Shown piece after piece: positions 1 through 32,000 of a stretch of 32,000 nt of DNA. The stretch's first letter is position 1. Each line of letters starts with the position of its first letter. The position numbers were made by a program, and so were the translations under genes. Source of the DNA: Chlamydiota bacterium (GTDB lineage Bacteria; Auribacterota; JACPWU01); the NCBI GenBank assembly GCA_016196885.1, contig JACPWU010000003.1, forward strand, positions 60,001 through 92,000, in the 5' to 3' direction. The notes below the pieces were generated by a model that saw only the letters and a program-made list of their open reading frames with translations, did no database searches and was not told the origin of the DNA.

Positions 1-3000
1 CGCCAGGATGTGGCGTTGGCTTTTGTCATCACATTGAGACGGCAGGGATTGTCCACAGAAAATGCCTTTGCGCATCTTCAAGATCTTCAACGAGCCGTGG
101 AACGGAGTCAATCTAGTTTAAACTATTTAGAATCATTGCTAGGTTCTGAGACTTCAAATCAGGTACGTGAAGCGGTTGAACGAGGAGATCGACAGGCTTT
201 ACTTCTCTTGAAAAGAGAGATTATGGATGGATCGAAGGTTTGTATTGATCCTAATGTCGATCGATATTTAATATCCCTTCTGCAGTTTATTTCAAGTGAG
301 GGTGCTGTCCATATGGACCTCATGCTAGATAAGATGGCCGAAGTGCTCAAGGCCCATCGTAAATCTCATCTTTCTTTACAGACCGATCTTGTCCCAGGTC
401 TTCAGATTTGGCAGGCAGAAATGTCGGTTTATGGCTGGGGGGAACTTGAGAAGGTTTTTGGGAAAGACATCCTTCAACAAATTCAAGAGGCTGTGAGGCT
501 TGACAAGCCAGAAGATGTTGCGAAAATTACACTTTCTCCTGACATTCGTCACCGGGCCGAAGAGGCCATGGTGGGATCCAGCCGAGGAAGGCCGGTGGAG
601 CAATATATTCGATATGTCCTTCTGATTTTAGAAATCGAGAAGGCTCCCTTGACACTCCCCTTTCATGAAGTGACTTTTTTTGGAGAAGATTTTTTTAAGC
701 GAGGCGCCTCTCCTACTTTCATTTTGGATTATTTTAAGGCCAGAACTTACCTAAGATCCAGTTATTCTCTTTATCATCGTGCCGCGGGCAATTTTGAAAG
801 TTTGGAGCCGTTTATTGAGGAAGTGGATCGCGAGAATAAAACGATCATGGGTTCACAGAAAGAGAGAAGGCTTTTTGTCCAACCTCTAACCCCCCCCGAG
901 AAATTGTCACCGGGGGAAGAGGGGTCCTATCTTTATCGCTTCGAAATGGGACTCGATTCCTATTTTGACATGGGTAATCATGATATTCAGATGTCGGCCT
1001 TGATTGTTCGCGGCGAACGAGAGATGTTATGGAAATTTGAAGAAATGAGGGTGAAGCATATTCCTGAGCTTAGGGAACAGTTGGCTGAGGCAAGAGAGCG
1101 CGGAGATGAAAAATTAATCGAGCAACTCGAAAAGGCTTTAGAGAAATGGAAAGAGGCTCGGATCGTGCCGTTTACTTATCGGGAAGTAAAAGAATTTCTC
1201 GAAGCAATTAAAAAGGGGGAAATGGATAAGCATGAGATTGATCTATTTTTTGAAACCGCTCTTTATTTTCAAACCAAACTTTTGGATTCGGGTCTCGTGA
1301 CGCTGGACTACTTTAATGGTGTGTCCTATTTAGTGAATCATTTTTGGAACGAACCCGGCCTTTTTGAGTGGCTGATGCAGTATCGTACGGAAACTAAAAT
1401 TGTTGAATTGTGGACCCAAGAGCCTGACAAAAAGGATTTGGGGCCGGAGGGAAACCGCTGGAAAATCTATTCACTTTTGGGACGCATGATTGCTCAAGGA
1501 ACTCCGTCTAGCGAATTGGTTGAGCGCCTGGTGAATCTTGATTTAGAACTTTCAGGGAAAGGGGTTCCCAATGATCGGTCAAAAACTCGGATGAAAGAGG
1601 GCATTGAAGCATTTCAAATTTTGAGGGATGTGATGATAGAAATGTTGGGGCCGAGCCTTCATAATCAAGAAAAGAAGACGGCCTTTCGCCGTTTGATTGA
1701 GGAATTGCTTGAGAGCCCATCTTCTTTAGGTCCATCTTTAGAAAATTGGCTTTGGGGTGTTCTGGAAAGCCGTATTGGAATCACGGAGGCTCAAGATTGG
1801 AAATTAAATAAAGAACGACTCTCTCAAGTTAGAAAGGATGATGAAAAGACAAAGGCGGATACGGCTGATCGTGCAAATGCCATTATGAGAGAACGTCCCA
1901 ACCTTTTAATGAAGACAGATCTTAAAAAATCTGATTTGCGTCTTTTAGGAATGGATCCAAAAACGGCGGATGAGTTCTGGCAATATTTAACTCAATCAGG
2001 ATTTCTTGAACCGAATCGGGAATTGGACGGCCTTTTAGCGGGCAACGTGAGTCAGGACTTAAGAATCCGGTTAGTTGCGGACGAAAGGTTAGGAGGAGAA
2101 CTAGAGGCCTTGAGGGTGGGGATGTCAGAAGAAATGCGAGAGGAAATGACAAGGTTATTGGGGTCGCCTTTGATGCAGGGTTTGGATGATGTGCTTTTTT
2201 CTTCCGTCAATGCTGTAGAGGAACTTTTGAGTGCAAAGATCCCAGAACCCTTGAAAAGATATTTACCGGTCACTCTATTGAGTTCCATGACAGCTTTGGA
2301 GAAAGTGAAGTGGATTCGGGAAGAATTTTTAAGTGATCCAGCCACTTTCGAGTTGGTGATGAGTCGCTCTGTTCAAGTACAACCAAGAGAGCCTGGGATG
2401 GAGCACGCTCTTGAACAATTGAAAACCATTCTTCTTTCTAAAAATGCCTCTTTAAAAGGGATTTTTGAAAAGCATGCAGATGCCGTGGGTCGCATTCAGG
2501 GCGCTTTAAGAGATGCTGGCCCTTCTTCAAGAGAATATTTAGAGGGGCTATTGGCATTGGTATTGCCCGATAAACTGGAGCAGTCGCATGGGAAAGATGT
2601 TGTCAATGACAACGATCCTTTTAAACCTCTTAAGCCTCTTCAATTTACTTTAAAGTGGGAGAGAAAATTAAGTCCTGAACTGCGTTTGCATTTGGGTCAG
2701 CTCTTTGAAGATCTTATCAGACACCGAGAGGAGTTTGAGATACAGCCTTTCACGGATGAAAATCGTTCTTCTATTCGTCAAATTCTTGGAATAGCCTCGA
2801 CAGATCGAAATCAGGCTTTTGAAGGTTTAAAAGCCTATTGCAGAGATGAAGCAGTCATAACTCGAGCCCTAGACAGGGCTGTAGAAGGAGATATCGAGGG
2901 GGGGCTTGCTTTATTAGAGCCTTTTGCGAAAGAGGATTGGATCTTGAGGGGAGTTTTTCGGCTTAAGGCTGAAAAGGCCGATGTTCAAACGGCGGTAGCC

Positions 3001-6000
3001 ATTTTAGATCAGTTGTATCCTGGATTTCACATTGATCCAGGTTATTTAGAAACTTTAGAAACACGGATGAAGGAAGGATATCGTGCCTCTGATATCCGTC
3101 ATTATCTCGAACACCGTGAGCGTGCGAATGCCCTTCTTCTTGTGATGCACAATTTGGATGATGAACAAGTCAAACGTTCGCTCCTTCGTTTGGAAGGACG
3201 GTTCCCAGACAATTTTTCAGAACTTTTCCCTGAAGAACGAAAGAAATTCGATGATGCGGTTGATGGACCTCTAAAAACAGAAATAACTCAACTGGCTTAT
3301 TTGGTAGAGGCTTATCGCAAGCTTCCTTATCGAGGGCCTCGCGTTCAGTTTAAAAAAACAGGGATTCTTTATCCAACTTATCACCCTGAAGTTCGTGTGT
3401 TGATGGCTCTCCCTGAAAATGAGTTGGAAGCAAAATTAGTTCAGGCTTTACAGGATTCTTTAGGAATTAGACTTACCCCCGAGCAGTTAGAACGGCTTAA
3501 GATGCGAGATATCAGTAACGGGGATAGTGGTGAAGTTGTAAATCGAATTCTCAATTTTGGAAATGATACAGCCGATGTCTTGCGCAAACTCTCTTACAGT
3601 AATTTTGGAGTAGATTGGCGGGTGAAACTGATGCTCTCGAATTTGGAAGGACTCGATCGAGAAATGCCAGACACGGTTCGCGATGAATTAAACAGCGCTT
3701 TAGGAGAGGATGTTGTTCATCAGATTGAGACAGCTCTTCAGATGACGAGAACATCAGCAGATTCTCTCCATCAAAGCCATATTTCGATGTCTGAGCCTTT
3801 ACGAACGGAATTAACGGGTCTTTTGGGTGCACCGCTTCTTGACTCAATGAATGTTATTTTTGCCTCTGAGACTGTATCCTTAGGGGAGTTGGGTGAAGGT
3901 AAAGGGTTAGAGCCTCTAAAGCCTCTTTTGGGAGAGACCCTTGTCTCTTCAATTCAAGCAGTTTTATTGGATCATACAATCCCAGACCCTCAGAAGATCA
4001 CAACTCTAAGAAATATTCTATCTCGAGATGAGCATGGAGCTACGATACTCCGTATGGTTTCTTTATTCCCTGGAGATTTAGCCATTCCAAATACTCTGGA
4101 TAAGCTTCATGAAATTTTGCCTGATCTTGATAACAATTCATTAACGATACTGGTTCATTTGAGAACCTTATTGGACCCTGACTATTTTAATCGGCTGAGA
4201 GTATTAGTTTTAGCTGATACAACGGCTTGTGATGTGATTCGTTATCACCGAATGGATACAAAAGATCCTGCTTATGAATATTTCAGAGCCCTCAGAGTCA
4301 TTGTAGATGACAAGTCTCGTGTCGATCTTTTAAAGGAGATTGTCCTCGATCAAAAGTTTTCTTCTCCACAAGAAGGTAAAAAAATAAGTCCTCCAAAACT
4401 TTCTGAACAGGCTAGACAATGGCTTTCTCTGACCATGCTCCTCACAGAAGGGTCTTATCGGCCTGAACTTTATAATCTTATCCGAGAAAATCCTGCCACG
4501 GTCGTCTCACGCATGCGGGGGATGATTTTGGTGGATCAAGCCAGCGTTGACATCATGGCCAATGCTTATGTTCGCGAGGGACTTTCCTATCATGATGCCC
4601 GGCAATTGAGGGATGGATGTACGATTTTGAGCGAGGCCATTCTCTCCAAGCACAAGGACTTGAGAATAGGCTCAAAAGCGCCAGAACTAACTGAGATGGT
4701 GTACTACCTCTCAACGGTCCTTCAAGACTCGGTTTGGGGTCAACCGGTTGTTCCAACTCCGGTGGTGACTCCTTCTATGATAAGGGAAGTCGTGGAGGAA
4801 TGGTTTGGCACAATCAAGGCTGATTTAAACCTTTCAGAGGCTGATTATAAGGCTTTAATAGATCAAGTGACAAAAAATGCCCTGACACCTGATGGCAAAA
4901 AAGTTCGGGTGGCTCCACATGAGATTAGACTGGTGGTTGAAAATGCCAGAGCCATCTGGACGGGCGCAAAATTTACGGGTGAAGAGTTTTTTCCCGACAA
5001 ACCAAATCCTAAAGCTGAAAAGGCTTGGAAATTACTACGCATTTATTGGGAGCAAGAAAACAAAGGGCGACCCCGCACATTCGGGGATGTTTTTATTCAC
5101 GCCCTTCGAAGTGGGAAAACCAATTTATTAGAGTATTTACCTCAAGAGGATCTTGCGTCCCGTTCTCTTCCTCAAGAAGAGGAATTGGAACAATATCTTG
5201 AGCGCAATGCAGAAATTTTAAAGTCCGTTGGGTTTGGTGACCTGCATATATCAGATATTCGTGAGCATGAACTTAAGATGAACGATGCCATGGAGAAGGT
5301 CTGGACCTATCTTTTAAAGGATGATCTTGAGAAAAAATATGGGGATAAGATTGAGACACCGAAGGGATCAGATGAAAAGATACCCAAAATCCTTCTAGGA
5401 ATGGGTGCAGTCGGATGGGGGGTGGGAATATTAGCTAACGTCAAAACATCTGTGAAATCAGGAAGGATTTCAAAAATTCTAAAAGGGTCTGCATGGTTGA
5501 CAGGTATAGCGGGAAGGCTTCTTTTCAGAGTCGCTTGTCATTTTTTAATCGCCTTTGCTGCCGCCTATCTCTTTGATTTATCTTTTGAACGAGGCTACTT
5601 GGATTCGTTCTTAGAATCTCTCGGAGATTTTTTTGGTTTTATCCCTCCTAAGTTTGAGACAGGTTCACTACCCAGAATATTTTATGTCCTGAAATTTATG
5701 AGTCTCAATGTTTATAAAAATGGTCTACCACTCCTGGCTATTTTGGTTTCTTTCTTTTCTATTTATGCGGGAGGACTTGTGGCCCATGGCCTCTTTGACC
5801 GCAAAAACCAATTGAAAAATCGTACCCGAAAAATCGTACATACTGCCATTGAAATTCTTCTTCCGGTCGGAGTCTTTTGGGGATTGGTCTTCACAGAGTC
5901 TTTTGGGCCCATAGGACCTGCCTTTGAGGCCCTGGGACATTTGGTGACATTGACCCTTATTTTTATTCTCACCCTCTATCATACGGGAGCGATTCGTAAG

Positions 6001-31851: not shown

Positions 31852-32000
31852 ATGTACAAAATTGTCCAAAAAATCACCAGTATTCTGCTTTGCTTATCTT
31901 TCTTTTCTTACGACGTCTCTTCAAGTTTTGCTCAGGAAACACATCTTCTAAATCCTATAACATCTGCCCAAGGCGGAAAAGCGCTTGTAAATTCCTCGCT
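31852..32000 (+). CDS. Secreted protein, 3'-partial (runs off the window)
   Basis: A GGGGGGAGA RBS precedes ATG 31852. The frame is open to the window end. The signal peptide is MYKIVQKITSILLCLSFFSYDVSSSFA|QE. Confidence 0.5.
   Translation, partial: MYKIVQKITSILLCLSFFSYDVSSSFAQETHLLNPITSAQGGKALVNSS

Follow-up and report, generated by a model that had tools for sequence, protein, structure and literature searches.

The window analysed here, a 32,000-nt stretch of DNA from a Chlamydiota bacterium (assembly GCA_016196885.1, contig JACPWU010000003.1, positions 60,001 to 92,000), is dominated by two co-oriented giant genes, gene 1 and gene 2, which according to the open reading frame (ORF) table fill 28.6 of its 32 kb. 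Both lie on the + strand, as do all other genes and domains whose window coordinates are given below. Gene 1 spans 1–15039 (ORF row 10–15039), is open at the 5′ end of the window, and contributes 5,012 codons to it. An exact-protein look-up with the small nucleotidyltransferase gene of the window led to NCBI contig JACOUD010000054.1 (assembly GCA_016178005.1; 86,830 bp), in which the product of gene 1 is called at 9,014 amino acids (aa) with a start ~12 kb upstream of the window; therefore, the window holds only the last 55% of the gene, encoding the C-terminal part of a protein with multiple transmembrane (TM) segments. Stop codons make up 4.4–6.3% of codons in the other frames, and since base composition gives P ~1e-138 for 5,012 stop-free codons, the giant stop-free runs are not due to chance. 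Furthermore, window positions 5861–26190 (20.3 kb) are base-for-base identical to JACOUD010000054.1, which is an independent contig. An earlier note, made from the DNA sequence alone, had described two co-oriented giant ORFs, the first of at least 5,012 codons; both statements are borne out, and gene 1 proves to be larger still.

Gene 2 appears in the ORF table as two overlapping ORFs, one at 17163/17223–27248 (3,361 aa when counted from 17163) and one at 27100–30774 (1,224 aa). DNA alignment and protein comparison trace the frame break to a 19-nt insertion at 27092–27110, CAACACGAGTGGAGGGGGT, an imperfect tandem copy of the preceding bases that is absent from JACOUD010000054.1. The gene 2 product of that contig (P0009) reads unbroken from the upstream into the downstream frame (...TVAKGAN|TIVFKAPR), and the contig ends there. 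With the insertion removed, gene 2 runs from the ATG at 17223 to 30774 and encodes 4,510 aa, in agreement with the ~4,500 codons previously estimated for the repaired gene. P0009 matches the window up to nt 26802 and then lacks 165 nt that the window contains. A comparison of window positions 26802–27150 with L046 10520–10733 shows that the 165-nt indel, the 19-nt indel, and three single-nucleotide polymorphisms (SNPs) are the only differences within 350 nt; the SNPs fall in the last 27 nt of the overlap and are synonymous in the downstream frame. With the 165 window-only nucleotides, the protein regains a segment alignable to copy two of a repeated unit (described below), and the window carries the better version of this indel. 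Repeat-induced misassembly was considered as the cause of the frame break and rejected, as the two domain copies share only 34% protein identity and the DNA shows no long repeat. P0055, a 1,193-aa protein (locus tag HYZ67_00725) on a 105,051-bp contig, matches the downstream ORF with 100% identity, which means that the window stems from a second metagenome-assembled genome (MAG) of the organism represented by JACOUD010000054.1. We conclude that the two ORFs are a single gene, interrupted by a lesion at the strain or assembly level; what looks like a frameshift in a giant gene can be a 19-nt insertion arising at either level. Separately, JACOUD010000054.1 ends 27 nt past the junction and a paralogue of gene 2 (P0010), on another contig of the same MAG, is likewise cut by a contig end; polymorphic positions in giant genes seem to be where assemblies fail.

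A hydropathy scan (not DeepTMHMM), used for both genes, identifies ~18 hydrophobic segments in gene 1, arranged in four clusters. Cluster 1 (aa 1836–2058; 5506–6174) directly precedes the glycosyltransferase-like module discussed below, clusters 2 and 3 (aa 3043–3416 and aa 3699–3883; together 9127–11649) enclose a soluble block, and a TM pair lies near the C-terminus (aa 4570–4624; 13708–13872). Pfam and NCBIfam returned zero matches across all window segments of gene 1. A word-indexed search for homologues, queried with 4,999 aa from gene 1, likewise gave no match, gene 1 itself included, and the listed matches end at ~5,800 aa; because gene 1 itself was not returned, this collection probably lacks such long entries. 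Indeed, the 9,014-aa product, although a called NCBI protein, was returned by neither protein search, and for that reason missing homologues of very long proteins in these collections do not equate to orphan status. An exhaustive phmmer search of 1.84 billion representatives with aa 1841–3040 recovered only eight relatives (best E 2e-12), all of them multi-TM proteins of 600–1,900 aa. Part of TM cluster 1 is conserved in the protein P0002 (gene 1 aa 1991–2134 against P0002 aa 10–148, phmmer). Outside aa ~1990–3135, no part of gene 1 in the window has a detectable relative.

The conserved core contains a glycosyltransferase-like module in two halves. The N-half (aa 2095–2290; 6283–6870) carries the motifs ALFVPFIASS, KVIINSQVKD, and HRNMDDPFLRKPGTMYDAL and was delimited by homology to two relatives, P0007 and P0008, while the C-half (aa 2880–3135; 8638–9405), defined by a nine-sequence alignment (A3), carries HQPDGDNEF (DxD), FQEE, FFGKGS, RSHDHTEA, and LQEWRVGD. 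Comparison with relatives shows that the halves are split by a beta-rich insertion of ~590 aa (aa 2291–2879; 6871–8637), which is common to P0001 and P0004 and absent from P0007, P0008, and P0031; the two halves are ~60 aa apart in P0007 versus ~600 aa in gene 1. P0008, the smallest relative, passes the Pfam cutoff for Glycos_transf_2 (24.5 versus 23.3 bits) with a match in its C-half region. Its motif series (FFHPIFAS, IDDSKD, HRN..KAG, CDADN, FQP, FYGKG, SHDFQE, QWQWGD, and then TM helices) follows the order of membrane glucan synthases, and gene 1 keeps this order, with the first three motifs in aa 2120–2262 and the remainder in aa ~2914–3115. The D of the DxD, the Q, the GK, the HD, and the E are invariant in alignment A3, and all are present in gene 1. 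The only Protein Data Bank (PDB) match of the C-half profile is the cyclic beta-1,2-glucan synthase Cgs/NdvB (8rf9/8rf0, E=0.0036), spanning the DxD, QP, GKG, and SHD..E blocks, and P0008 alone also matched Cgs/NdvB and no other PDB entry. From these motifs and profile matches, we infer that the one conserved core of gene 1 (aa ~1990–3135) is a TM-flanked glycosyltransferase of the GT2 clan, nearest to the GT84 family of Cgs and to OpgH-like enzymes. In two metagenomic contigs (L044 164–12244 and L045 1–10499), a Pfam-dark gene of 1,450–1,520 aa with a gene-1-type glycosyltransferase lies directly 3′ of a co-oriented ~2,100-aa gene; the ~2,100-aa partners are homologous to each other, carry a signal peptide, and have no Pfam match, and the pair may be a conserved two-gene unit.

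Gene 2 is built differently. It opens with a signal-peptide-like segment (17268–17330), in which three K/R residues precede the hydrophobic stretch and the end reads ...GFA|QE. Beyond an N-terminal domain treated below, a weak methyltransferase-like region lies at aa 999–1166 (20157–20660), where the Methyltransf_23 match (E=1.1e-3) is below the Pfam cutoff and the PDB match is to 3e23 (E=1.4e-3). It is followed by a UDP-sugar pyrophosphorylase (UDPGP) domain at about aa 1280–1720 (21000–22322). The PF01704 match covers aa 1447–1587 (E=5.6e-10, 38.9 bits against a cutoff of 22), PDB UGPases agree, and the family motifs are in place: a nucleotide-binding-loop-like AAGGSSRM, WGHGE (GHG(D/E)), NIDNSGA (NxDN, within RNIDNSGA), and KGGG (KGG, within GQKGGG). 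The expectation that gene 2 embeds enzyme-like domains is therefore upheld by one significant match and one of E~1e-3. Two isolated hydrophobic segments (aa 1793–1812 and aa 2134–2152) and the block between them occupy 22539–23618, a ~150-aa beta-rich unit occurs twice in tandem at 26583–27684 (the copies are 34% identical, with the frame break between them), and the last hydrophobic segment, PLWGILVLMLPWVLRAR (29146–29196), is followed by an orphan tail of ~520 aa. The first of the isolated segments (22539–22598), in the middle of the protein, resembles an internal signal peptide, KNLLVLALTAAALFVAPGPQARA|A, ending ARA|A, and may bear on topology or processing.

In total, gene 2 has just four hydrophobic segments, all isolated, and more than 1,800 aa of beta-rich sequence lie between its membrane segments, a block that is probably outside the cell. 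TM clusters had been reported for both giants; they are found in gene 1, whereas gene 2 does not have them. The two-copy ~150-aa unit is the sole internal repeat in either gene, consistent with the view that neither is a repeat-built adhesin, and Pfam and NCBIfam detect no adhesin repeats, RTX/MARTX, autotransporter, Rhs/YD toxin, or nonribosomal peptide synthetase/polyketide synthase match in the window part of the giant genes. The C-terminal 1,224 aa of gene 2 have no homologue except themselves and no Pfam or NCBIfam match. The segment-wise profile searches that had been recommended thus place neither protein in a known adhesin, toxin, or secretion family, the UDPGP domain alone being significant in gene 2.

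The N-terminal part of gene 2 defines a large family of at least 46 giant proteins. A homologue search with gene 2 returned 46 proteins of 2,000–5,800 aa, with E values from 2e-6 down to 6e-170, from MAGs named Omnitrophica, Elusimicrobia, Endomicrobiales, and 'Chlamydiae bacterium', almost all of them Omnitrophota or Elusimicrobiota. In local BLAST, 45 homologues align only to gene 2 aa ~30–620, at their own N-terminus. The payloads behind this shared head differ and include phosphoglucomutase (PGM), parts of pyruvate phosphate dikinase (PPDK), UDP-glucose dehydrogenase, enolase, PGK, glycogen phosphorylase, M48 with ABC1, SecA_DEAD, NUDIX, and CPBP. Gene 2 shows the family traits: a Sec-type signal peptide, an N-domain of ~550 aa with IHIQDxHxNxEAQ, LEG, and GGFHT, and a long, variable enzyme payload. 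A scan of species-representative genomes located 40 loci, most titled Candidatus Omnitrophota and the remainder labelled uncultured bacteria or uncultured Planctomycetia/Planctomycetales, with the best 55% identical. Several family copies can be scattered through a single MAG, such as the four loci in MAG nW3bin14.

The domain itself (aa 91–631; 17433–19055), delimited from the 45 homologues and an AlphaFold2 model, has an alpha/beta core with IQIQDVHCHFEAQ, LEA, and GGFHTDG. In a 23-member alignment, H30, Q36, E61, R465, G490, G491, and H493 are invariant and Q27, D28, and G62 nearly so (domain numbering). Modelled with 20 sequences, the domain reached a mean predicted local distance difference test (pLDDT) score of 82.6 and a predicted template-modelling score of 0.73, and its core comprises parallel strands (9–15, 22–28, 55–60, 110–113, 484–490, and 507–513) split by a helical insertion of ~360 aa. 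Foldseek against the PDB gave no significant match; the weak ones include ChaN (2g5g), HopBA1 (5t09), and the erythromycin esterase EreC (6xcq). ChaN 2G5G and HopBA1 5T09 are TIKI-superfamily structures, and the erythromycin-esterase family is treated as having the same catalytic site (PMC6254334). In a member-by-member scan, PF04187 (ChaN, Tiki superfamily) is the top Pfam family, matching 7 of the 23 members with a best E of 1.4e-4; P0031 scores 27.0 bits against a cutoff of 27.7. A profile of the domain against PDB sequences yielded noise from the helical insertion only. The spacing D28-x-H30 ... E61 ... G-G-F-H493, matched by sequence only, is similar to that of the 2His/2Glu catalytic site described for active TIKI enzymes (PMC6254334), with Asp as the first acid. 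Judging from weak profile matches and these motifs, the N-domain is likely a hydrolase of the TIKI/ChaN/erythromycin-esterase type. As a compact, well-modelled domain that defines a large family, it offers a handle on a putative hydrolase function through its conserved D/H/E/H set.

One homologue joins features of both giant genes. P0031, a 2,117-aa protein from a Logan assembly, combines the gene-2 N-domain with a gene-1-type glycosyltransferase at aa 1100–1458, placed between TM segments and carrying FFGKG, ILSHD, and RRWLTGD. The gene 1 N-half profile (A5) matches P0031 at 4e-6 and the C-half profile at 6e-7; the gene-1-type region gives Glyco_transf_21 at E=0.0025, and a classical GT2 domain is also present (aa 694–921, E=5e-18). 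This fusion is the only positive evidence that gene 1 and gene 2 cooperate, and it does not establish that they do.

Our best explanation of the locus is that the two genes encode separate giant envelope proteins that serve envelope glycan synthesis, through a Cgs-like gene 1 and a UDPGP-bearing gene 2; we hold it with low confidence and rate it just short of an even chance. In this scheme, gene 1 would polymerise sugar from a UDP-sugar donor and deliver the glycan chain to the envelope by way of its own TM bundle. Gene 2 would supply the donor (UTP + sugar-1-phosphate -> UDP-sugar) or modify it by methylation, might display its beta-rich modules at the surface, and could use its N-terminal hydrolase to mature the protein itself or a substrate. 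If this explanation is true, some 'giant genes' are envelope-building enzymes rather than predation weapons.

Several observations weigh against glycan synthesis. No curated family matches gene 1 itself significantly, and its glycosyltransferase assignment runs through intermediates, with a best PDB E of 0.0036. The N-half profile did not find Cgs in the PDB. A single-sequence AlphaFold2 model of gene 1 aa 2095–3135 had a pLDDT of 32.5 and is unusable; of the structure prediction and Foldseek comparison proposed earlier, the N-domain part accordingly gave a good model with no significant match and the gene 1 part gave nothing usable. Within the window part of gene 1, Pfam and NCBIfam find neither the GH94 phosphorylase nor the cyclisation domain of Cgs, so gene 1 has a Cgs/OpgH-like glycosyltransferase module and is not a Cgs. 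For gene 2, the N-domain has no Pfam match of its own and no significant fold match. Moreover, because gene 2 opens with a signal-peptide-like segment, the UDPGP and methyltransferase domains would lie outside the cytoplasm: a cleavable-looking signal peptide would export them to where UTP and S-adenosylmethionine are not expected. The same topology paradox is noted for this protein class in two preprints (bioRxiv 10.1101/2023.11.21.568195; 10.64898/2026.06.07.730766).

The remaining objections concern cooperation between the two genes, and they form the case for the strongest alternative, that gene 1 and gene 2 are unrelated neighbours: giant envelope genes with independent roles, and no 'system', in a region that collects toxin-antitoxin cassettes and small repeats. 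The genes had been called back-to-back, which they are not: they are separated by a 2.1-kb spacer (15040–17160) containing repeats and two toxin-antitoxin pairs, mobile-looking cassettes bracketed by 77-nt direct repeats. When gene 1, the C-terminus of gene 2, and a 162-aa ORF downstream of gene 2 were compared by tblastn with the 40 related loci, there was no match, and no gene-1-like sequence lies within 10 kb of any of these gene-2-family loci. The P0010 locus adjoins SecA and toxin-antitoxin genes and also has no gene-1-like neighbour, the partner of the gene-1-type glycosyltransferase gene in L044 and L045 is a different gene of ~2,100 aa, and the family's scattered multiple copies per genome (four loci in nW3bin14) fit independent roles. 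The idea of a single cell-surface system is therefore not supported, and the synteny across related genomes that was to be looked for was found neither among the 40 loci nor at P0010. On the other hand, P0031 fuses both module types, a UDP-sugar-forming enzyme adjoins a UDP-sugar-using, polymerase-like module in the same orientation, and true orthologous synteny lies outside the sample, since N-domain identity to the closest relative found reaches only 55%. We consider unrelated neighbours possible, although doubtful.

A second alternative assigns the proteins to attack on prey or a host: surface-anchored giants would bind a second cell and restructure or break down its wall, the beta-rich modules serving as adhesins and the enzymes processing captured sugars. 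The preprint on Archaeovorin-type proteins (bioRxiv 10.1101/2023.11.21.568195) makes this proposal for the class, and the enzyme set (glycosyltransferase, methyltransferase, sugar-phosphate enzymes) is as reported for Archaeovorins; the signal peptide of gene 2 and its beta-rich stretch of more than 1,800 aa, set between membrane segments, would also suit such a role. However, Pfam and NCBIfam detect no glycoside hydrolase, lytic transglycosylase, peptidase C39/S8, dockerin, TSP3, or SecA_DEAD in the window, no type II secretion, pilZ, or sugar-import genes are nearby, and both proteins are below the limits of 10,000 aa ('large') and 30,000 aa ('giant') given there. An attack role is unlikely.

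The third alternative treats the giants as polyproteins. Each giant ORF would be cut after translation, the TIKI-type N-domain of gene 2 would be the processing protease, and internal signal-peptide-like segments would direct the pieces. Family-wide conservation is confined to the N-domain, whose D-x-H/E/H set resembles that of active TIKI endopeptidases, gene 2 aa 1793–1812 resembles an internal signal peptide ending ARA|A, and processing would resolve the topology paradox; West-Roberts et al. suggest that C39 and S8 peptidase domains at the N-terminus act in this way (bioRxiv 10.1101/2023.11.21.568195). Yet cleavage is a prediction from sequence features, members of the TIKI superfamily also include haem binders and esterases, and the fold assignment itself is not significant, which leaves a polyprotein quite improbable. 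A broader conjecture would make the signal peptide and TIKI-type N-domain an unrecognised common 'head', a maturation protease, of giant secreted or membrane polyproteins in Omnitrophota, Elusimicrobiota, and related lineages, with gene 2, as the maker of UDP-sugar, and gene 1, whose core would be a new, insertion-bearing relative of cyclic-glucan synthase, forming a self-contained machine for building and exporting envelope glucan; we regard it as something of a long shot. Finally, a chimeric assembly or a pseudogene decaying by frameshift is very improbable: the window does contain a frame break, the assemblies disagree within 350 nt (165-nt indel, 19-nt indel, three SNPs) where the NCBI contig ends, and both gene-2-family genes of GCA_016178005.1 are cut by contig ends, but 20.3 kb are identical between assemblies, the break is a single duplication-like 19-nt insertion with the other assembly in frame, the SNPs past it are silent, a domain alignable with the second repeat copy is regained through the 165 nt of the window, and no further stop occurs in 13.6 kb.

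The spacer cassettes are readily identified. Pair 1 (15093–15688) consists of a DUF433 gene (15093–15317; Pfam E=1e-20) and a DUF5615/Mut7-C PIN-like gene (15344–15688; E=3.6e-20), and pair 2 (15861–16600) of an MNT-type nucleotidyltransferase gene (15861–16190; NTP_transf_2, 4.6e-10) and a HEPN gene (16187–16600; 7.5e-18). A 77-nt direct repeat at 14957–15033 and 15702–15778 (97% identical) brackets pair 1, and with a weaker third copy at 16749–16808 (72% over 60 nt) the three copies bracket both cassettes; the final 27 codons of gene 1, just 5′ of its stop, are supplied by the first copy. This bracketing by direct repeats suggests that the cassettes were inserted by recombination at the 77-nt element. 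An integron attC-like reading of the repeats was rejected, as they fold no better than shuffled sequences (z ~0).

Two other repeat types were observed. A 35-nt palindromic element, CCCTCCCCT...TAAGGGGAGATGGAGGGGTTA, occurs at 12609–12643 and 18719–18753, in frame within both giant genes, with a related copy near 31040–31065. It is translated as PPLGVRGDGGV and PPLSLRGDGGV, similar peptides (SPLKVRGDGGV and SPLKIRGEEKQ) occur in P0010, and the copy in gene 2 falls in a segment of the AlphaFold2 model with pLDDT<50 (model residues 389–433). The element is reminiscent of the in-frame Rickettsia palindromic elements. A strongly folding compound hairpin, GTAGTCGCCCGATTTATCGGGC..., is present in opposite orientation at 16665–16721 and 30814–30859, flanking gene 2 at a distance of 14.1 kb (DNA fold z=-6.9); the pair look like REP-type (repetitive extragenic palindromic) intergenic repeats.

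Downstream of gene 2, the 162-aa ORF (31184–31672) had been called STAS-like, an assignment that we could not substantiate: its best Pfam matches, STAS_2 (E=0.15) and the STAS-like DUF4325 (E=0.16), score ~12 bits against cutoffs of 23–29, and it has no NCBIfam match. The start of a third gene (31852–32000) provides 49 visible codons of signal-peptide-like sequence; its end, ...SSSFAQE, resembles the ...DTGFAQE of gene 2 and the signal-peptide ends of the family. Exact-protein look-ups with the 162-aa ORF, with gene 2 in its split form, and with P0055 retrieved no record, an exact 48-mer from the third gene had no match in metagenome_contigs, and Rfam and tRNA scans of the window found nothing.

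The enzyme modules can be compared with three known groups. Gene 2 shares with eukaryote-type UTP-glucose-1-phosphate uridylyltransferases (PF01704) a significant Pfam match and the catalytic-loop motifs; it differs in that it aligns only profile positions 159–294 of 413 and embeds the domain at aa ~1280–1720 of a 4,510-aa secreted or membrane protein. Gene 1 resembles Cgs/NdvB (GT84) and OpgH-type enzymes in placing a putative glycosyltransferase between TM helices and in the motif order DxD, QP/QE, F-GKG, SHD..E, RW/WR-GD. In contrast to Cgs/NdvB, its similarity is marginal (E=0.0036), a ~600-aa insertion interrupts the domain, GH94 phosphorylase and cyclisation domains are not found in the window part, and the module sits inside a 9,014-aa protein with three further TM clusters. 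The N-domain of gene 2 recalls the TIKI superfamily (Tiki, TraB/PrgY/GumN, ChaN, erythromycin esterases, and RRSP of MARTX toxins) in its predicted alpha/beta parallel-strand core, in [D/E]-x-H, E, and G-x-H sequence motifs of similar spacing, and in carrying additional appended or inserted domains; RRSP, too, is a single module within a giant secreted protein of many domains. Against this, the core of the N-domain holds a ~360-aa helical insertion, its first acidic residue is Asp rather than Glu, and gene 2 itself lacks a Pfam match and a significant fold match.

The giant genes of uncultivated bacteria of the Planctomycetes-Verrucomicrobia-Chlamydiae (PVC) type are a recognised open problem, being abundant, mostly unannotated, and assigned functions by guesswork from scattered domains. 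The closest described group is that of the giant membrane proteins of Omnitrophota, termed 'Archaeovorin-type' (West-Roberts et al., bioRxiv 10.1101/2023.11.21.568195) and also the 'multi-enzyme metabolic cluster' class, with signal-peptide-plus-TM topology (bioRxiv 10.64898/2026.06.07.730766, a 2026 preprint). Like the Omnitrophota giants, the window genes are very long ORFs with a signal peptide and/or TM helices and much unannotated, largely unique sequence, and they too embed a sugar-metabolism enzyme, a putative glycosyltransferase, and a weakly matched methyltransferase. Homologues of gene 2, mostly from Omnitrophota, carry the repertoire of the class (PGM, PPDK, SecA_DEAD, NUDIX, and glycogen-related domains), and gene 1 shares its numerous TM helices (~18 segments), compared with just four in gene 2. 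The differences begin with size: the class limits are at least 10,000 aa for 'large' and 30,000 aa for 'giant' proteins (bioRxiv 10.1101/2023.11.21.568195), and because of these limits the 9,014-aa and ~4,510-aa proteins are small relatives of the class. The window part shows no SecA_DEAD, HEAT/TPR, C39/S8, glycoside hydrolase, or dockerin match, whereas most members have a divergent SecA_DEAD; for this domain, gene 2 and the window part of gene 1 (excluding the upstream 4,000 aa) have no Pfam match. The MAGs carrying the window genes are labelled 'Chlamydiae bacterium' at NCBI, while most titled related loci are Omnitrophota; the window itself contains no marker gene. The shared TIKI-like N-domain and the Cgs-like glycosyltransferase were not found in those parts of the two preprints that were searched or read.

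The earlier note had mentioned Omnitrophota as context only, and this turns out to be an actual relationship, given that the gene 2 family and its 40 loci are mostly from that lineage. Its description of both genes as uncharacterised stands insofar as Pfam and NCBIfam place them in no known adhesin, toxin, or secretion family; they are not of an undescribed kind, as the gene 2 family is matched at E values down to 6e-170. Both genes instead encode giant multi-enzyme membrane proteins of the type seen in Omnitrophota and in PVC-type lineages close to it, a class already described and still uncharacterised, to which gene 1 adds a rare, Pfam-dark putative glycosyltransferase family that is related to cyclic-glucan synthase and fused in one homologue to the N-domain family of gene 2.

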